Positions 4,420 through 14,847 of a stretch of DNA of 48,454 nt are shown piece by piece. Every line of letters starts with the position of its first letter. Position 1 is the stretch's first letter. The position numbers were made by a program, and so were the translations under genes. This DNA comes from a virus. The notes under the pieces are model-generated. The model searched no databases. It was given only the letters and a program-made list of their open reading frames with translations, and was not told the origin of the DNA. The stretch is from the IMG/VR virus record IMGVR_UViG_3300025152_000001. One strand, written 5' to 3'.

Positions 4420-5050
4420 TGCAACAGGAATTCCTATAGGAAATTGGATTGGTGCGGATTGTGGTAGTTCTTCTGGAGTAGTTACTGGAAATACAACAGC
4501 AACAAACTATCATTGGGAAGCAATTAGACCATTAACACCATACGGTTTATCTATATCGTGTACACCAGAGGTGAAAGAATATAATCCAATAAAACCTAAA
4601 GGAGGAAAGAAAATGAAATCAACAAAACTAAAAGTGGGAGATAAGGTGAAAATGGATGGGACTACCGGGGAATATACGGTGATTAAACTTCAAAACGAAA
4701 GGCAGGTAGTGTTTAGTTCTGGTGTAGATGGAGCACTGGCATACCGTGCAGAAAAGAGTGAAAATGGTCTGTGGTTTTGCGGTGCTAGTGCAATAGTGAA
4801 GGTTGGCAATGCTATAAAGAAAGTTCCTAGCCTTCTAGTAAAAGGACACACACCCAGATTAGTAATAAAAGTGGGGTGTAAAGAGTTTGACGTTAAGGGG
4901 ATTAACAAATTAGTTAAAAGGTTGTTATCTATGGCTAAGGCATCTAAACAGGTAGTAGGTGGTCAGGCGGTGTTTAGTGGAGAAGGGTTTTATGTTGAAG
5001 ATATAGAAAACGCAATTAAGTGGTTGAAAGAAAACAAAATAACCTCATAG
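4409..5050 (+). CDS. hypothetical protein (213 aa; alternative start at 4613)
   Basis: GAAGGAG SD before 4409. An in-frame ATG at 4613 has an even stronger SD (AAAGGAGGAAAG), so a shorter product is possible. Confidence 0.55.
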   Translation: MENSATGIPIGNWIGADCGSSSGVVTGNTTATNYHWEAIRPLTPYGLSISCTPEVKEYNPIKPKGGKKMKSTKLKVGDKVKMDGTTGEYTVIKLQNERQVVFSSGVDGALAYRAEKSENGLWFCGASAIVKVGNAIKKVPSLLVKGHTPRLVIKVGCKEFDVKGINKLVKRLLSMAKASKQVVGGQAVFSGEGFYVEDIENAIKWLKENKITS

Positions 5051-5059
5051 GAGAATAAT

Positions 5060-5863
5060 ATGGCTTGGATTGAGAACATAATAGATAGGTCTATAATGGC
5101 TAAGGCAAAGGCGAATAAAAGAAGTGGTAAGTTTTCGTTTTCCAAACTTGGACACTGCTTACGACAAATTATGATGGAGGAACGCAAGTATGACGAGTTG
5201 TACCCTGATAAATTTATACCCAATACACCACAGCAAGAGAGGGTGTTTGCAGCTGGGTATTTATTTGAACGGTTTTGTGTTGACAACACCAAGGATATAA
5301 CCGTTGCTTCACAGATACCTTGCGAGTATCGGGGAATTAAGGGAACAGCAGATGTCGTGTTAGATGATAGTGGAAAGAACGTGTTGGGTGACTGGAAATC
5401 AGTTCATAGTGATAAGTTTGGATATTTAAGCAAAGAAGCAAAGCCAGACGAAAGTTATGCAATGCAGATTACCGGCTACTACTTATCTTTAAAGGATAAA
5501 TACAAACTAGAAGATAAGGGTTTGGTAATATATGTCGAGAAGAATAGTATTTTAATAAAAGAAATGGGATTTGAGTTTAAGGATTATATCGGGAAGGTTA
5601 ATGCAAAGATAGACCTTTATGAGAGGGCTTGTGCCGTTGACACGCTTCCTGATGGACTTCCTTTAAGTGAAGAAGGGAAAATACCGTGGCAGTGCTTTAG
5701 TAATGGTGCTAAGAATGGATGTAGGTTGTGGTGTTCGTATATACGGCACTGTGAGAAATACAATACCGAATATTTGAAGGCAATGGAAGAAGAAAAGAAA
5801 ATGAAAGCAGAGAAAGCAGAAAAGAAAGCGAAAGCAGATAAGAAAAAGGGAGGGTTAATATAA
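5060..5863 (+). CDS. Cas4-like / RecB-family PD-(D/E)XK exonuclease with probable Fe-S cysteines
   Basis: 267 aa. GTADVVLD, GDWKS (D-x-K) and QITGYY (QxxxY) motifs. One N-terminal Cys (GHCLRQ) plus C-terminal CRLWCSYIRHC, and a Lys-rich tail. Confidence 0.7.
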   Translation: MAWIENIIDRSIMAKAKANKRSGKFSFSKLGHCLRQIMMEERKYDELYPDKFIPNTPQQERVFAAGYLFERFCVDNTKDITVASQIPCEYRGIKGTADVVLDDSGKNVLGDWKSVHSDKFGYLSKEAKPDESYAMQITGYYLSLKDKYKLEDKGLVIYVEKNSILIKEMGFEFKDYIGKVNAKIDLYERACAVDTLPDGLPLSEEGKIPWQCFSNGAKNGCRLWCSYIRHCEKYNTEYLKAMEEEKKMKAEKAEKKAKADKKKGGLI

Positions 5864-10373: not shown

Positions 10374-10868
10374 ATGGATATAGAATTAGATAAAATATTG
10401 TGTAAGAAATATCCCAAACTGTTTAAGCAAAGACACGGTGATGTTCGTAGAACTGCAATGGTTTGGGGGTTCCAGTGTCGAGCAGGATGGGCAATGCTTA
10501 TTGACGAACTATGCTTTAAGATACAAAATCACTGTGATAAGATGAAGTTTCAGGTGGAGGTGAACACAGTTAAAGAGAAATGGGGTGGGTTGCGGTTTTA
10601 TATTGATGGTGCAGATGAAATGATATACAAGTATATCCACTGGGCAGAAGAGGTATCGTACCATATCTGCGAAGAGTGTGGAACTATGGATAATGTCAAA
10701 ACTTGGTATATTGGGTGGAACAGAACTCTCTGTATAGATTGTGCCAAGAAGGGAGAATACCCTGCTTACTATACCCCACTATATTATTGGTACCACACTA
10801 ATATCCGTTCTAGGTGGATTCATTTTGAGTGGAGAGTTAAATCTTTCTTTAGAAGGAGGGGTAAATGA
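10374..10868 (+). CDS. conserved phage protein (KEKWGGLRFY motif, C-terminal CEECG...CIDC zinc ribbon)
   Basis: Internal ATG with AAAAGGAGA SD. The 108 nt upstream in the long ORF are GC-rich and look non-coding. Confidence 0.6.
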   Translation: MDIELDKILCKKYPKLFKQRHGDVRRTAMVWGFQCRAGWAMLIDELCFKIQNHCDKMKFQVEVNTVKEKWGGLRFYIDGADEMIYKYIHWAEEVSYHICEECGTMDNVKTWYIGWNRTLCIDCAKKGEYPAYYTPLYYWYHTNIRSRWIHFEWRVKSFFRRRGK

Positions 10869-11773
10869 TAAAATCGTTTCCAAAGATTTGGAATTTAGGA
10901 GAGCCTTTTATCAAGGAACTTTATGATGGCGATGTTGAAATAACAGAAAAGATAGATGGCAGTCAGTTTGGATTTGGTATAACTCCGAATGGTGATATTG
11001 TAATGCGAAGCAAGGGAAAAGAGCAATACAAAGAACAATGTGATAAAATGTTTAATTTAGCAACAGAACAGGTCTTTAAGAGAGAAAAGAGATTACTGGA
11101 GTTTCCAAAAGGAACATATTTCTATGGGGAGTATTTGAATAAACCACATCACAATGTACTATCTTACGAGAGAACCCCCAAGGACAATATAATTATATTT
11201 GGAGTGCAAACCCCAGACGGTTCTTTTGTAAGTAAACATTCGGAATTAAAGTGGTTTTCAGATGAAATGGAATTTGAGATAGTACCATTACTTAAGGAAG
11301 GAGTTGTATCTGGAATAGACGAATTGAAACAATTACTTGAAACACCAAGTATTCTGGGTAATTGCAAAATAGAGGGATTTGTAATAAAGAACTACAATAA
11401 GTTTACCCCCTTAATTGGTGGGACTTCTTTCCCTTGTTTTGGCAAGTATGTATCAGAAGCATTTAAAGAAAAACATAACAAAGAGTGGGTTTCTGGTAAG
11501 GACAAGATAACAGAGTTTATTGATAGTTTTAGAAGTGAGGCTAGATGGAATAAGGCAGTACAACACCTTAAAGAAAAGGGACTGCTGACCAATTCCCCCA
11601 AAGATATTCCACTTTTATTTAAAGAAATACATATTGACTTAGTTGAGGAAGAAGAAAGAGCTATAAAGGAAGATTTGTATAAACTCTACATTGACAGTAT
11701 AAAGAGAAAGGCTTGTGGTGGTTTCCCGGAGTGGTATAAAGAAAAACTAATGAAACAATCCGTGGAGGGGTAA
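10865..11773 (+). CDS. ATP-dependent RNA/DNA ligase-like nucleotidyltransferase
   Basis: 302 aa. Motif I EKIDGSQFGF (KxDG), then FYGEY, IIIFGV, EGFVIKNY and GKYVSEAFKE, matching covalent nucleotidyltransferase motifs I, III, IIIa, IV and V. Confidence 0.7.
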   Translation: MIKSFPKIWNLGEPFIKELYDGDVEITEKIDGSQFGFGITPNGDIVMRSKGKEQYKEQCDKMFNLATEQVFKREKRLLEFPKGTYFYGEYLNKPHHNVLSYERTPKDNIIIFGVQTPDGSFVSKHSELKWFSDEMEFEIVPLLKEGVVSGIDELKQLLETPSILGNCKIEGFVIKNYNKFTPLIGGTSFPCFGKYVSEAFKEKHNKEWVSGKDKITEFIDSFRSEARWNKAVQHLKEKGLLTNSPKDIPLLFKEIHIDLVEEEERAIKEDLYKLYIDSIKRKACGGFPEWYKEKLMKQSVEG

Positions 11774-12495: not shown

Positions 12496-12860
12496 AAAAA
12501 CTAGAAAATAAATATCTCAAGAAATCTACCAAAGAGAAACTAACACAGAAATTGAGAAAGTTGTACGATATAAAAGTCCAAACAAAAACGCCAGATTATT
12601 CTAAGATTAGGTTCTGGGGTAAGATGGTTAAGGTCAATGCTATATTTTGTCCTGATTGCCATACTATGATATTCTCTCTCCACCGCCACGATTACAATGA
12701 ATGTAAGTGTGGTAAATATATGATAGACGGTGGATTTGATTATCTTAGATGTTCAGTGAACAGTATTGCCTGTACCATTGGACTTCCGGTAGCACTATTC
12801 AAGGAAATGGGTCTGGACTATCCAGAAAAGGCGGTATATGATAATCGTAGTTCACGGTGA
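12492..12860 (+). CDS. hypothetical zinc-binding protein (122 aa)
   Basis: ATGA coupling. CPDCH...HRHDYNECKCG motif. Confidence 0.55.
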   Translation: MKKLENKYLKKSTKEKLTQKLRKLYDIKVQTKTPDYSKIRFWGKMVKVNAIFCPDCHTMIFSLHRHDYNECKCGKYMIDGGFDYLRCSVNSIACTIGLPVALFKEMGLDYPEKAVYDNRSSR

Positions 12861-13215
12861 TTGTGTTGGTAAGAAAACAAGCCAAGTGTTTGTGTTTCGG
12901 TTGAGAAGGCTTGTACCAAATGCTAGGTTTATACAATATGCTAAAGATTTCGGTAGACAGATTACAGGGGAACACAAGGGGATGTTCTTAAAGGAAGATA
13001 AATTACAGATACATATTGACTGGTTTACATCTAATAGAATAACAATAAGAGATGGGGTTAATATGGAACAATCTATCTGGGATTTGCTTCAAGATTATGA
13101 AGTGATACACAATGATTCACAGTTCTATAAATGGTCTGGGACAAAGAACCTAGATAAATTAAATCCAAGAGTAGAGATAAAAATAGAAAAGTTTTCTCTT
13201 GACATTTCTAAATAA
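12838..13215 (+). CDS. hypothetical protein (125 aa)
   Basis: ORF overlapping the upstream end by 23 nt. Protein-like composition. Confidence 0.5.
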   Translation: MIIVVHGDCVGKKTSQVFVFRLRRLVPNARFIQYAKDFGRQITGEHKGMFLKEDKLQIHIDWFTSNRITIRDGVNMEQSIWDLLQDYEVIHNDSQFYKWSGTKNLDKLNPRVEIKIEKFSLDISK

Positions 13216-13227
13216 ATATGGTATAAT
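13199..13227 (+). promoter_or_regulatory. perfect consensus sigma70/sigmaA promoter (TTGACA-N17-TATAAT, TGG extended -10) placed directly on an ATG
   Basis: ttgaca 13199-13204, tataat 13222-13227. The ATG of ORF 13233 lies 5 nt after the -10 hexamer. Confidence 0.7.
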
Positions 13228-13232
13228 GTATT

Positions 13233-13535
13233 ATGATTGACAAGAAGGCGTACGACTTCAACAAGAAAGTGTGGCATAGCTTTTATCAGGGAGAAATACA
13301 CCATACCTTTGGTGGTTCTCACAGAAGTGGTGTTGGATTATGTTGCCTTCACTTCTTTGAACAAGCACGGTCTGGACATCAAGATAATTGGAGTTGGGTG
13401 GAAGGACTAAAAGAGAAGTTGTTTGATGACTTCCAACTTGCCAAGGATAATTACGATTACTTTGATGGGTGCAGGAAGAAATTGTTTAGCGAATGTGAGT
13501 ATTGTTATTTCTTTAGCGAGGTTCCGAAAGGATAG
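13233..13535 (+). CDS. hypothetical protein (100 aa), predicted leaderless
   Basis: ORF with protein-like composition. There is no SD, and the ATG coincides with the predicted transcription start of the 13199 promoter. Confidence 0.45.
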   Translation: MIDKKAYDFNKKVWHSFYQGEIHHTFGGSHRSGVGLCCLHFFEQARSGHQDNWSWVEGLKEKLFDDFQLAKDNYDYFDGCRKKLFSECEYCYFFSEVPKG

Positions 13536-14215
13536 TCCACCTCTTGGCAATGTGGATAGACCCCAAAGAACAAAAGTGGTTACCTTGCTTCACCCAAAAT
13601 CCTCTCAACCGAAGGATTGGGAAAGTTACCCAGTCGCCCTACAGGGTAAAAGTGGGGATAGTAAATAGAGAGGTAGCTAGGGTGCTAATGGCTTTAGGGT
13701 GGGGAATAATCGTGGGGTTAGTCCCTCGAAAAACCCACCCACCTTGCTAAAATGGCGGGTTGACTTAATTGTGCTTAGCACAGCCGATAAGATGCCTATA
13801 GGTGAAATTTCACGGTGTCATCCCCGCCTCCAATAAATGATTGACTCAGTATGCCTATACCACGCTAATGTGTGGCAAGCATAAATCTCTGGGTTTTGCA
13901 GTACCTTGTGTGCCTCTACTTATATGACGGTATGAGTAAGCAAACTTCACGGGGTCTTTGCGGGGTAGGTTCTGACGAGAATAGCGGATAGCAAGTATTG
14001 GCAAGGGTAGGTACAAACTCTCGTAAGTCCAATCGCCTATCCTATATTAATCAATAGTATTATGAGGTTATTGTAGACGTTCACAACATCACCACGATTG
14101 GCTGTAGCGAGTTTAATTAGTTCAACGTACTTACACTCGTTTTGGACATTATCTTTCACTACAGGGCATCCTAGAGCGATTTAGGGGTATAAAATAGCTA
14201 TATCACGGAGGGGAT
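13536..14215 (+). ncRNA. candidate large structured non-coding RNA (class undetermined)
   Basis: 680 nt without a credible ORF or SD and visibly more GC-rich than its flanks. Nested GC helices include 13697-13703/13734-13740 and 13754-13759/13823-13828, the latter enclosing hairpins 13769-13783 and 13802-13813. The strand is assumed from the flanking transcription. Confidence 0.35.
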
Positions 14216-14449
14216 ATGCGATACACGGTAAAGCCAACCAAAAAGCAACTAAAGATAATGAAGGAGTGTTGGGAAGAGTTTAAGTTCCAAGAGAACCAAT
14301 GGTATGAGGCTATTGGTGGTTTAGAGAAGACCTTGGAACGAGAAACAGGTATTAAGGGGATAGAGTTCTTTAGGAATGATTTTGGCGAATTTGCTGGTAT
14401 CGGCAATATCGCAAGGACAATGAAACTTATAATAGGAGATGACCTATGA
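14216..14449 (+). CDS. hypothetical protein (77 aa)
   Basis: GGAGGGG SD 4 nt before the ATG. Confidence 0.6.
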   Translation: MRYTVKPTKKQLKIMKECWEEFKFQENQWYEAIGGLEKTLERETGIKGIEFFRNDFGEFAGIGNIARTMKLIIGDDL

Positions 14450-14847
14450 AAGACGAACTACTACCAAGAATACTAGACCACTTGAAAATAAAGGAACTAG
14501 GTCTTACCGTTTACCTACTTGCGGACTATGTTCTAAGAGTGAATATGGCTCAACGAGATTATGCTTTGGGTGCTTCTGATGGACAATGGCAACTTAAAAT
14601 AGCTAATGAGGATTTAGAACAATTACAGAAATATATGAACGGTAAGAAGGGTGTTATATACGACAATGTTTATAAGGCAATAGAACTCGGGGAACTTATG
14701 ATGTGTTTTGAGGATAAGGGGAAATGCGGACTTGCTAGAGATTGCTGGATTACTAGAAAAGGTTTTGCCCCTTGCCGTAAAGAACCTATAAAGAAACAAA
14801 GGAGGAATAATGAAAAATCTCTACGTAAAACTACCAAATCTAAATAA
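14446..14847 (+). CDS. hypothetical protein (133 aa)
   Basis: ATGA coupling. Basic C-terminal tail. Confidence 0.6.
   Translation: MKDELLPRILDHLKIKELGLTVYLLADYVLRVNMAQRDYALGASDGQWQLKIANEDLEQLQKYMNGKKGVIYDNVYKAIELGELMMCFEDKGKCGLARDCWITRKGFAPCRKEPIKKQRRNNEKSLRKTTKSK

Follow-up and report, generated by a model that had tools for sequence, protein, structure and literature searches.

The window, a 48,454-nt stretch of viral DNA (IMG/VR record IMGVR_UViG_3300025152_000001), contains a 680-nt gap at 13536-14215, between the ORFs at 13233-13535 and 14216-14449. An earlier note made from the sequence had described a long gap holding only short overlapping ORFs; we found none longer than 81 aa in it. 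The full block is present with 100% identity on four public contigs, where gene callers report no ORF, and in part on two further contigs. Its G+C content, previously described as enriched, is indeed 0.45-0.47 over 13450-14050 compared with 0.31-0.39 in the flanks. An ORF on the - strand (14037-14159) was rejected as a gene because its substitutions are distributed 3/3/1 by codon position. The phage encodes an RNA ligase. Its terminase shows at most 30% identity to those of cultured phages, and host inference from the terminase failed.

Upstream of the gap, a predicted sigma-70-type promoter precedes the gene of a 100-aa Cys/His-rich protein (Table 1). The promoter is kept in the related contig L001, and homologous promoters are found before the RNA described below, or before a tRNA, in L123, L107 and L253. 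Judging from its sequence, this promoter probably gives rise to a single early transcript spanning the small ORF and the RNA. The promoter-proximal slot is filled by tRNA-Asn in the related phage L253 and by a cloverleaf-like element in L123; ARAGORN detected no tRNA or tmRNA genes in the window, L001, L107, L120 or L123. No terminator-like site was found on the + strand across 12800-14800. The small ORF is coding, because its substitutions relative to L001 are 7/6/20 by codon position. Its product has no match in Pfam (to E<=10), PHROGs, PDB or the defence library, and no nuclease or toxin domain; the AlphaFold model reaches a pLDDT of 66.5 and gives no Foldseek hits. An HNH-like reading of the protein was discarded on these empty Pfam, PDB and Foldseek searches and this pLDDT. 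The protein family comprises 48 clusters, with homologs all of 97-113 aa and with invariant His, Cys, Asp and Glu residues.

We then delimited the conserved element, which occupies 13516-14043 on the + strand (~530 nt). Its 5' boundary lies 20 nt before the gap, within the 3' end of the upstream ORF, and its 3' boundary lies at about 14043. Thus, the limits 13536-14215 proposed earlier describe a real gap and not the conserved unit, the remainder being spacer. In L001, a 445-nt insertion carrying a pair of ORFs lies between domain D and the homologous spacer, while in the compact variants domain D is directly followed by a Shine-Dalgarno sequence and ATG. Relative to L001, 33 substitutions are observed in 528 nt, where 71-217 are expected from flanking third-codon-position rates, and the indels (22, 4 and 1 nt) are not multiples of three. 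A run of 132 nt (13714-13845) is invariant, where at least 17 changes are expected at flanking synonymous-site rates (P <= 5e-9). The block is more conserved than its flanking genes and is under purifying selection. The folding z-score against dinucleotide shuffles is -2.77 for the + strand and -0.31 for the - strand. This asymmetry, together with conserved G-U pairs that would turn into C-A mismatches if read from the opposite strand, indicates that the element is a + strand RNA.

Five sequence variants of this RNA (the window, L001, L107, L120 and L123) were collected from related uncultured phages, two of them close. Their modules are ordered as domain A, an optional insert of ~255 nt, the tandem units B and C, and domain D. 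The relatives' versions are 200-300 nt long. Unit C and domain D, which form the conserved core of ~140 nt, are common to all five variants, while unit B is not in all of them (L107 has one unit only). In domain A, helix P1 closes a junction with three hairpins, one capped by a GAAA tetraloop, one invariant (GUCCAC/GUGGAU) and one variable. The domain adopts an identical minimum-energy topology in four variants, each folded independently, and is 90% identical to its L107 counterpart over 72 nt; all of its pairs are canonical, and P1, P2, P4 and the extension of the P3 loop show compensatory changes. The pairs of domain D are likewise all canonical, with compensatory changes in P1, P2 and P3. 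Its compact versions fold into the same junction (z = -2.5 to -3.9), and P3 is expanded in the window. Across domains A and D together, every variant has canonical pairs at each of the 39 helix positions, and seven helices carry compensatory changes.

Table 1. Features of the promoter, the small gene and the RNA element, in positions of the window
Feature	Position	Strand	Remarks
Predicted sigma-70-type promoter	13199-13227	+	TTGACA, 17 nt, TG-n-TATAAT; 12/12 hexamer matches and extended -10 TG
Gene of 100-aa Cys/His-rich protein	13233-13535	+	Adjoins the RNA in 5/5 RNA-bearing variants
Domain A, four-way junction	13516-13588	+	Overlaps last 20 nt and stop codon of the upstream ORF
Central insert, ~255 nt	13589-13843	+	Window and L001 only; absent from L107, L120 and L123
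Unit B, abiF-like hairpin	13844-13894	+	P1 6 bp, 2-nt bulge, P2 UGC/GCA, CCUAU, P3 hairpin, AA, 3' internal loop UAAAUCU
Single-stranded linker B-C	13895-13902	+	8 nt; 8-10 nt in the 4 variants with both units
Unit C, second abiF-like hairpin	13903-13955	+	P1 8 bp, P2 UGC/GCA, CCUCU, P3 with conserved AUGACGG loop, 3' internal loop AACUUCA
Domain D, junction	13962-14043	+	P1 GGGGUAGG/CCUAUCCU, hairpin UUCU-GACG-AGAA, conserved strand UAGCGGAYAGCAA, variable hairpin P3
Spacer, outside the conserved RNA	14044-14215	no strand	Precedes 77-aa gene; missing in compact relatives

Units B and C align as tandem duplicates. They are 94% paired, compared with 25-46% in slid controls, and double changes occur at 8 of 15 pairs. 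Across the nine units of the family, P1 and P2 are 100% paired; P2 shows a compensatory swap between UGC/GCA and AGC/GCU, and position 5 of P1 is found as AU, UG or UA. The covariation expected of a structured RNA is thus present among the relatives, and every helix of A, B, C and D is supported by compensatory base changes. In short, the data show that 13516-14043 is a selectively maintained, modular, structured RNA; this applies to its existence, to the + strand, to its division into modules and to the helices found in A, B, C and D. The large structured RNA envisaged in the earlier note holds up in its strand-specific folding, selection and compensatory helices; the RNA is modular around its short core, not monolithic.

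The central insert folds by itself with z = -2.81. It is available in two nearly invariant copies, so that its covariation consists of one compensatory pair and a few G-C/G-U changes, and it has no match among the other sequences fetched. All helices listed in the earlier note fall inside this insert, where the complementary pairs 13598-13603/13613-13618, 13697-13703/13734-13740 and 13754-13759/13823-13828 are indeed present; the repeated words it pointed out also exist (ATGCCTATA at 13792 and 13851, and TTGGCAA-type words at 13544, 13873 and 13998). Three structural candidates were set aside. The stretch 13754-13832, in which a GGCGGG...CCCGCC stem precedes UCCA, looks tRNA-like, but ARAGORN finds nothing there. 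A hammerhead-like CUGACGAG at 13972 is replaced by CUUGACGAAG in the relatives, and the segment is a covarying 4-bp hairpin. A closing helix GGAUA(13530)/UAUCC(14041), suggested by alifold on a two-sequence alignment, gave way to the local P1 of domain D, which covaries in five variants.

Database searches returned little. Rfam 15 gave zero matches at gathering thresholds over the whole window, and only noise at E<=10 over 13200-14500 (Fibrobacter-1 at 15 bits on the wrong strand, mir-276, MIR160, NEAT1 and snR86). A blastn search of the region against 50,697 phage records produced no match. In exact-word scans with five core words over viral, metagenome and genome collections, the L001 contig alone was genuine; the other matches were discarded on inspection as chance occurrences in high-GC coding DNA or as members of one unrelated coding family.

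The earlier note had not foreseen that units B and C resemble an antitoxin. The abiF RNA motif (RF03085) is an RNA antitoxin that binds and neutralises the AbiF/Abi_2 HEPN toxin (PMC12373285, PMC12737573). The orthologous unit B of L120 matches RF03085 over its full length with 30.2 bits (E = 0.022), below the gathering threshold of 37. The Rfam model does not list abiF at E<=10 for the window's own units, in searches of 1301 nt and of 131 nt, nor for the units of L123. A second model, R1, was built solely from the nine units of the RNA family; units B and C score 65.4 and 66.6 bits on it as training members. Among 36 viral loci, R1 detects the authentic abiF motif at its correct position in 14, with a best score of 32.4 bits, and these motifs align to it over their full length. 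Its controls gave one weak match in 545 kb of unrelated loci, and one match in 45 loci with abiF words and without P1 pairing. A leave-one-out model, R2, recovered L120 unit B at 52.6 bits and still found four authentic motifs; without L120 unit B, just two matches reach E ~0.01, and the cross-detection leans partly on this unit, which shares the words used to gather the authentic abiF set. No third abiF-like unit was found in the central insert with R1 at E<=10.

The abiF words are AAGCCUCU (5' side) and GCUCAAAUC (3' side); the second of them forms the AbiF-inhibiting internal loop. Both are exact in L120 unit B, while the same positions match them partially in window unit B (AUGCCUAU and GCAUAAAUC) and in window unit C (GUGCCUCU and GCAAACUUC). 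The 3' internal loop thus reads UAAAUC or AACUUC in the window units, compared with CAAAUC, which is inhibitory in the solved AbiF complex. The abiF consensus has a terminal loop of ~7 nt, whereas the nine units carry a covarying P3 hairpin of 20-35 nt (20 nt in the window). Since loops of 16-22 nt occur in some authentic viral abiF motifs, we regard the long P3 as an expansion and not as disqualifying. The arrangement as tandem antitoxin-type repeats behind an upstream promoter, with two units in four variants and one in L107, fits the same picture. Taken together, sequence and fold lend moderate support to B and C as abiF-type units.

We tentatively favour the possibility that the RNA is an early-expressed, antitoxin-mimicking decoy that acts in trans against a host AbiF. 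Neither Abi_2 nor HEPN was found among the 75 ORFs of the window (PADLOC at E<=1e-3; Pfam at E<=1e-5); the genes downstream of the RNA encode 77-133 aa and gave no family match. An action in trans is suggested because the phage lacks an AbiF-type toxin. The RNA would be transcribed early, together with the small ORF, from the promoter at 13199-13227. Infection would release the host AbiF toxin from the host's own labile antitoxin RNA, and the abundant phage RNA would take up the toxin dimer, one unit per monomer. The occupied toxin would stay inactive, so that the phage could finish its cycle. The 255-nt insert and domains A and D might be further modules, or they might serve as scaffolds, specific to this lineage, by which the units are stabilised or presented. 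Transcription from the promoter, AbiF binding and the decoy function are all inferred here from sequence. The decoy reading has a precedent in the pseudo-ToxI of phage PhiTE, and its tandem pair recalls RCd22. The genomic context agrees with it as well, given the tRNA-Asn that fills the slot in L253, the RNA ligase of the phage and an orphan abiF motif beside a Tad2-like gene. Against it speak the sub-threshold Rfam score, the altered 3' internal loop, the long P3 and the small size of the family. Most of the RNA (A, the insert and D) has no counterpart in known abiF RNAs, and the decoy idea leaves these parts unexplained.

Alternatively, the RNA may be a partner of the 100-aa Cys/His-rich protein, serving as its ligand or regulator, or as the RNA antitoxin in a novel type III-like system whose protein is non-HEPN. 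We consider this unlikely, although their adjacency is constant in the five variants and the protein has invariant His, Cys, Asp and Glu. The gene order flips: the protein precedes the RNA in the window, L001 and L120, and follows it in L107 and L123, where the succession of promoter, tandem RNA repeats and small protein resembles a type III toxin-antitoxin layout. However, three of the five variants came to light via the protein, so the adjacency is subject to ascertainment bias. No trace of the RNA was found beside the distant family members examined (P0007, P0009 and P0010), which sit in tightly packed arrays, and the slot in L253 holds tRNA-Asn in place of this RNA. The missing terminator between RNA and gene and the lack of any nuclease or toxin domain, fold match or defence-library match for the protein also argue against this partnership.

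It is similarly doubtful that we are dealing with a structured RNA unrelated to AbiF, such as a stable regulatory or scaffold RNA, whose likeness to abiF is convergent, the common form being a simple hairpin whose internal loop is asymmetric. The escape of the window copies from Rfam's abiF model would agree with convergence, as would the fact that A, D and the insert, which make up ~80% of the RNA, match nothing, and that domain D, rather than unit B, accompanies C in every variant. On the other hand, convergence would have to account for specific shared features (the ACCC...GGGU ends of P1, GCCUCU, AAGC and YAAAUC, their order and spacing, and the tandem pair), as well as for detection in both directions with clean controls.

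Less probable still is a composite device in the promoter-proximal cargo slot that holds tRNAs in related phages. It could be an abiF-type antitoxin RNA re-partnered with the adjacent non-HEPN Cys/His protein, giving a novel type III-like RNA-protein module of lytic phages, or a multi-decoy in which A, the 255-nt insert, B-C and D would each mimic the RNA ligand of a different RNA-guided or RNA-regulated host defence. We give an equally small chance to a cis-acting leader or UTR element, riboswitch-like or a processing site, that governs translation or stability of the co-transcribed mRNA. AAAGGAG and ATG lie within ~15 nt of the 3' strand of D-P1 in L107, L120 and L123, the RNA sits in an operon without its own terminator, and authentic RCd22 acts on abiF expression in cis too. 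However, no class of downstream gene is conserved: depending on the variant, the RNA is followed by the gene of the small protein, that of a 135-aa protein or a 22-aa hydrophobic ORF, and a distance of 170-615 nt separates the RNA from the next gene in the window and L001. Furthermore, no conserved helix sequesters the Shine-Dalgarno sequence, and a terminator/anti-terminator alternative is not evident.

Two further readings are highly improbable. A known large class (GOLLD, ROOL, HEARO or raiA) or an ORF-less self-splicing intron, as the earlier note had suggested along with group I/II introns, would be compatible with the size, GC enrichment and phage location, but Rfam 15 gave no such match for the window (gathering thresholds; E<=10 in the region) or the compact relatives. 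The flanking ORFs, with a stop and a start of their own, are independent genes and not exons, and the element changes sides of the complete protein ORF, which it follows in the window and precedes in L107 and L123. A DNA-level element (replication origin or packaging site) or a decayed protein gene could be imagined from a conserved non-coding block in the replication and recombination arm with five copies of GGATAG (~16-fold enriched), but this enrichment fails multiple testing over 2080 hexamers in a GC-rich block, iterons and an AT-rich unwinding region were not found, folding is strand-asymmetric, G-U pairs are conserved and compensatory changes preserve RNA helices. In addition, no relative encodes a protein here, the indels are not multiples of three, and the block is more conserved than the genes beside it.

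AbiF/Abi_2 toxins and abiF RNA antitoxins constitute widespread abortive-infection systems, and AbiF/Abi_2 systems have lately been proposed as Cas13 ancestors. We found no established route of phage escape from AbiF in the literature searched. If true, the decoy proposal would add a second natural RNA antitoxin mimic to the pseudo-ToxI of phage PhiTE, and one that would be the first in the HEPN/AbiF lineage. Three domains that the proposal leaves unexplained, including one with an invariant stretch of 132 nt, and the exchange of RNA and tRNA behind the promoter point to under-explored non-coding RNA accessories of phages.

The hairpins have the plan of the known abiF motif (also called AbiFr), with a P1 of ~6 bp that ends in ACCC...GGGU, a bulge of 1-2 nt, a P2 of 3 bp and, in words that the window units match partially, a 5' GCCUCU, AAGC and a 3' internal loop of the YAAAUC type. 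The window units differ in P2, which is AGC/GCU in the motif and UGC/GCA in the window units, and the abiF systems carry an Abi_2/AbiD/F HEPN toxin gene immediately downstream, whereas the window phage has none. The closest arrangement is RCd22 of the C. difficile phage phi027, which likewise has two tandem copies with a short single-stranded linker and a sigma-70-type promoter in a phage genome. In RCd22, each of the two abiF motifs was modelled on one monomer of the AbiF dimer, and the linker in the dimer groove (PMC12373285). However, RCd22 is ~100-130 nt long, while the window units are set in a 530-nt RNA with three extra domains. Type III antitoxins differ in that a Rho-independent terminator separates their repeats from the toxin gene; none was found here.

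Phage PhiTE evades the type III toxin ToxN by means of a pseudo-ToxI RNA (PMC3475682). Pseudo-ToxI and the RNA described here are both encoded by phages that lack the cognate toxin, and both contain tandem repeats resembling a type III antitoxin of the host. The toxin differs (ToxN versus AbiF/HEPN), pseudo-ToxI folds as pseudoknot repeats, and the PhiTE mechanism is experimental while the one proposed here is inferred.

Orphan abiF sRNAs of lytic phages (for example, cyanophage S-CREM1, PMC9964418) are also abiF-type hairpins without an Abi_2 gene nearby. Among the authentic viral abiF motifs that we collected, 33 of 36 are orphans, with neighbours including terminase, gp3, C5 methylase and Tad2-like genes. 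One authentic orphan motif lies directly upstream of a Tad2-like anti-defence gene. That ~90% of canonical abiF motifs on viral contigs are orphan suggests a general phenomenon; no confirmed function of orphan abiF motifs was found in the literature searched. These orphans are canonical (36-38 nt), score above Rfam thresholds (51.6 bits in S-CREM1) and are usually single, whereas the window units are divergent, expanded, paired and placed within a large multi-domain RNA.

GOLLD and ROOL RNAs are, similarly, long, GC-enriched and highly structured non-coding RNAs of phages and prophages with no known partner. They show no match in sequence or structure, and each has one conserved large architecture, in contrast to the modular core with optional domains found here. 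Finally, the RNA may be compared with the tRNA cargo that phages carry behind early promoters, since the same slot holds tRNA-Asn in L253 and the cloverleaf-like element in L123, although the window RNA itself is not a tRNA according to ARAGORN. The tRNA-Asn and the cloverleaf-like element would both be stable and abundant, and could act against defences that target RNA.

The 680-nt gap downstream of the 100-aa ORF contains no ORF longer than 81 aa, has a G+C content of 0.45-0.47 against about 0.35 for the genome, and carries, at the coordinates given in an earlier note, all the complementary pairs and repeated words listed there. The note's observation of a GC-enriched non-coding block is confirmed. 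The block occurs at 100% identity and full length on four public contigs, where gene finders leave it uncalled, and two further public contigs with the block end partway through. We placed the start of the RNA element within the final 20 nt of the upstream ORF because the sequence there is 90% identical to the 5', promoter-proximal end of the RNA in L107, a related phage. L001 (IMG/VR contig 3300025087_000257), a divergent relative that aligns across the region, carries two ORFs (49 and 105 aa) on a 445-nt insertion immediately 3' of domain D, and the conserved element therefore ends there and is followed by spacer. Of the second of these ORFs, just the final ~26 nt are present in the window, reflecting either a deletion in the window or an insertion in L001. 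A minus-strand ORF within the spacer is not coding. Part of the spacer is well conserved in L001, with 2 mismatches over ~70 nt and a cluster of changes just beyond, and it includes a hairpin (CGAGU...ACUCG, then UUUU) whose 20-nt loop keeps it from being called in the terminator scan. This hairpin might act as a weak terminator or as a site regulating the 77-aa gene.

Positions of the features in the window and in related phages
Sequence	Feature	Position (strand)
Window	RNA ligase gene (PF09414, E = 5.5e-13), 1.7 kb upstream of the RNA	10865-11773
Window	Consensus promoter	13199-13227
Window	ATG of the 100-aa ORF, 5 nt past the -10 hexamer, without a Shine-Dalgarno sequence	13222-13235
Window	Upstream ORF	13233-13535
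Window	RNA element	13516-14043 (+)
Window	Domain A	13516-13588
Window	Insert	13589-13843
Window	Invariant 132-nt run	13714-13845
Window	Insert junction closed by GGCGGG/CCCGCC, with the UCCA after it	13754-13832
Window	Unit B	13844-13894
Window	Unit C	13903-13955
Window	Domain D	13962-14043
Window	GGATAG copies	13530, 13554, 13656, 13986 (+); 14037 (-)
Window	Deletion/insertion site relative to L001	~14044-14050
Window	Spacer	14044-14215
Window	Conserved spacer part	14081-14151
Window	Spacer hairpin	about 14110-14143
Window	Clustered spacer changes	14152-14167
Window	Downstream ORF	14216-14449
L001	Insertion with two ORFs	4836-5280
L107	DnaB helicase carrying an intein	1-758
L123	Extra cloverleaf-like element	101-170
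L123	Hydrophobic ORF	~484-552
L253	tRNA-Asn(GTT)	1054-1128
L253	Hydrophobic ORF	~1167-1247
L253	tRNA-His	2095-2169

Against L001, the upstream ORF shows 7/6/20 substitutions by codon position and is therefore truly coding. The RNA element has only 33 substitutions; at the third-position rates of three flanking genes (divergence 0.135, 0.198 and 0.41), 71-217 would be expected. Part of the insert with its border to unit B is invariant (P <= 5e-9). These counts, together with indels of 22, 4 and 1 nt, led us to reject the block as a decayed gene. Five copies of GGATAG, several in helices or junctions of domains A and D, lie in the block against 25 on both strands of the whole 48-kb window, an enrichment that fails multiple-testing robustness.

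The element encodes a conserved, modular structured RNA of the plus strand with two tandem hairpin units, which supports the large structured RNA proposed earlier as a candidate. The plus strand folds to -213 kcal/mol (z = -2.77 vs dinucleotide shuffles; -0.31 for the minus strand), and conserved G-U pairs identify the same strand. Nine B and C units from the window and its relatives align as duplicates of a single hairpin, P1-bulge-P2-CCUCU-P3-AA-P2'-loop-P1', with 94% of cells paired against 25-46% for slid partners, 8 of 15 pairs changed on both sides, and a covariation score reached by 0 of 500 shuffles. When four variants are folded independently, each domain A gives one and the same four-way junction, and the compact domain D likewise gives a shared junction in three (z = -2.5 to -3.9). 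Each of the 39 positions in the A and D helices holds a canonical pair whichever variant is taken, and double changes that compensate one another occur in A-P1, A-P2, A-P4, the A-P3 loop extension, D-P1, D-P2 and D-P3. The insert alone folds with z = -2.81; its predicted helices, those of the earlier note, show one compensatory pair, from just two nearly identical copies. Its invariant part includes a three-way junction followed by UCCA that recalls a tRNA acceptor stem, discriminator base and CCA end; ARAGORN detects neither tRNA nor tmRNA there or elsewhere in the window.

We reached L107 through a RusA-like protein (76% identical), and L120 and L123 by profile search with the small upstream protein; exact-word scans of viral, metagenome and genome collections for more distant relatives gave only chance matches. 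The order is protein gene, A, ~255-nt insert, B, C, D in the window and L001; promoter, A, C, D, Shine-Dalgarno sequence and ATG of the small-protein gene in L107; promoter, an extra element, A, B, C, D, Shine-Dalgarno sequence and ATG in L123; and protein gene, B, C, D, Shine-Dalgarno sequence and ATG of another gene in L120. Thus C and D occur in 5/5 variants, A and B in 4/5 and the insert in 2/5, in a sample of only five that is biased, as three came via a neighbouring protein. The extra ~70-nt element of L123 is a cloverleaf-like four-way junction with a 7-bp closing stem (z = -3.5), with no tRNA call by ARAGORN and no Rfam match.

A permissive Rfam scan of the relatives matched the abiF motif (RF03085) to L120 unit B over its full length at 30.2 bits (E = 0.022), short of the 37-bit gathering score, with both conserved abiF words exact. 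The Rfam model does not list the units of the window and L123, even in searches of about 130 nt; these are therefore abiF-like by architecture and transitive similarity, not members by Rfam's criterion. We then collected 120 viral loci with AAGCCTCT-N(3-30)-GCTCAAATC (L127-L246), 36 of which form five or all six of the P1 pairs, mostly with loops of 6-7 nt, and are thus authentic abiF motifs. A covariance model built only from our nine units found the motif full-length and in the correct place at 14 of the 36 (best 32.4 bits; 12 at a rough E <= 0.02), as well as at 1 of 45 word-bearing loci without P1 pairing and, with 18.8 bits, once in 545 kb of unrelated loci; within the window it finds exactly two units. 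Rebuilt without L120 unit B, the model still detects the left-out unit, at 52.6 bits, and finds four authentic motifs, at similarly rough E-values of 0.01-0.2. These results moderately support B and C as divergent, expanded abiF-type motifs. That Rfam's model misses the window's units would suit an unrelated RNA with a convergent resemblance, which we consider unlikely beside the reciprocal recovery.

The 100-aa Cys/His protein has no match in Pfam, PHROGs, PADLOC or PDB, and its structure model (pLDDT 66.5) no fold neighbour. Its mRNA would be leaderless or nearly so, judging from the promoter spacing; the L107 homolog has a normal AAAGGAG site. An exhaustive profile search returned standalone proteins of about 100 aa in 48 clusters, and three more distant members lie in tightly packed gene arrays with no part of the RNA. 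In the related phage L253, a homologous promoter is followed by tRNA-Asn, a small hydrophobic ORF and the protein gene, so that the tRNA occupies the promoter-proximal slot held by the abiF-like RNA in L107 and L123, with tRNA-His in the next gap. The protein therefore does not require the RNA, and the slot holds interchangeable stable-RNA cargo under the same promoter. Despite their adjacency, a partnership of RNA and protein is accordingly doubtful. A cis leader, which the Shine-Dalgarno sequence after domain D in three relatives would suit and the differing downstream genes would not, seems less probable still. The hydrophobic ORF (22-27 aa; MEAVLYVVIAIPILLVCAALWD and MFIDTMIVIVLVLAVAVVFFWDG...) lies between cargo and protein gene in L123 and L253, and has no counterpart in the window.

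A known large class (GOLLD, ROOL or intron type), as named in the earlier note, is highly improbable: across the whole window no Rfam 15 model reached its gathering threshold, and at E<=10 the stretch 13200-14500 gave a single 15-bit noise match on the wrong strand. Equally remote is a DNA element, however constrained the sequence, given the strand-specific fold. The block has no blastn match in 50,697 phage records. Its source is an uncultured SU10-like podophage with DnaB, SSB, RNA ligase and a RusA-like resolvase, whose terminase shares at most 30% identity with its counterpart in any cultured phage. In the L107 phage, the DnaB helicase has an intein (precomputed Pfam: Hom_end_hint, Hom_end, LAGLIDADG_3), and none was seen in the window DnaB. 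T4-type RNA ligases mend tRNAs cleaved by host anticodon nucleases, and the window ligase may therefore be another counter-measure against RNA-targeting defence.

No Abi_2/HEPN match was found among the window's 75 ORFs, and of the 36 authentic motifs on viral contigs only 3 have an Abi_2 gene within 3 kb. Some of the remainder directly precede genes for large terminases (L161, L162, L177, L202, L239), a gp3 packaging protein (L193), a C5 DNA methylase (L174) or a Tad2-like anti-Thoeris protein (L182). None of the 120 loci contains domain A or D, the insert or the small protein. Orphan abiF sRNAs are known in a few phages, their role not confirmed (PMC9964418, PMC12197685), and may be a general phage feature.

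RCd22 of C. difficile phi027 is an RNA antitoxin of two tandem abiF motifs that binds and neutralises the toxin AbiF (Abi_2, HEPN), whose gene follows immediately downstream, with one motif modelled per monomer of the AbiF dimer and the linker in a basic groove (PMC12373285). The AbiF RNase, which is regarded as the ancestor of Cas13, is inhibited by nucleotides in the bulge of its RNA (PMC12737573). In the reading that we favour, which assigns no role to A, D or the insert despite the strong constraint on the latter, the window RNA would be transcribed early from the consensus promoter and would act in trans as an antitoxin mimic that holds a host AbiF dimer inactive, by analogy with the pseudo-ToxI of phage PhiTE (PMC3475682).
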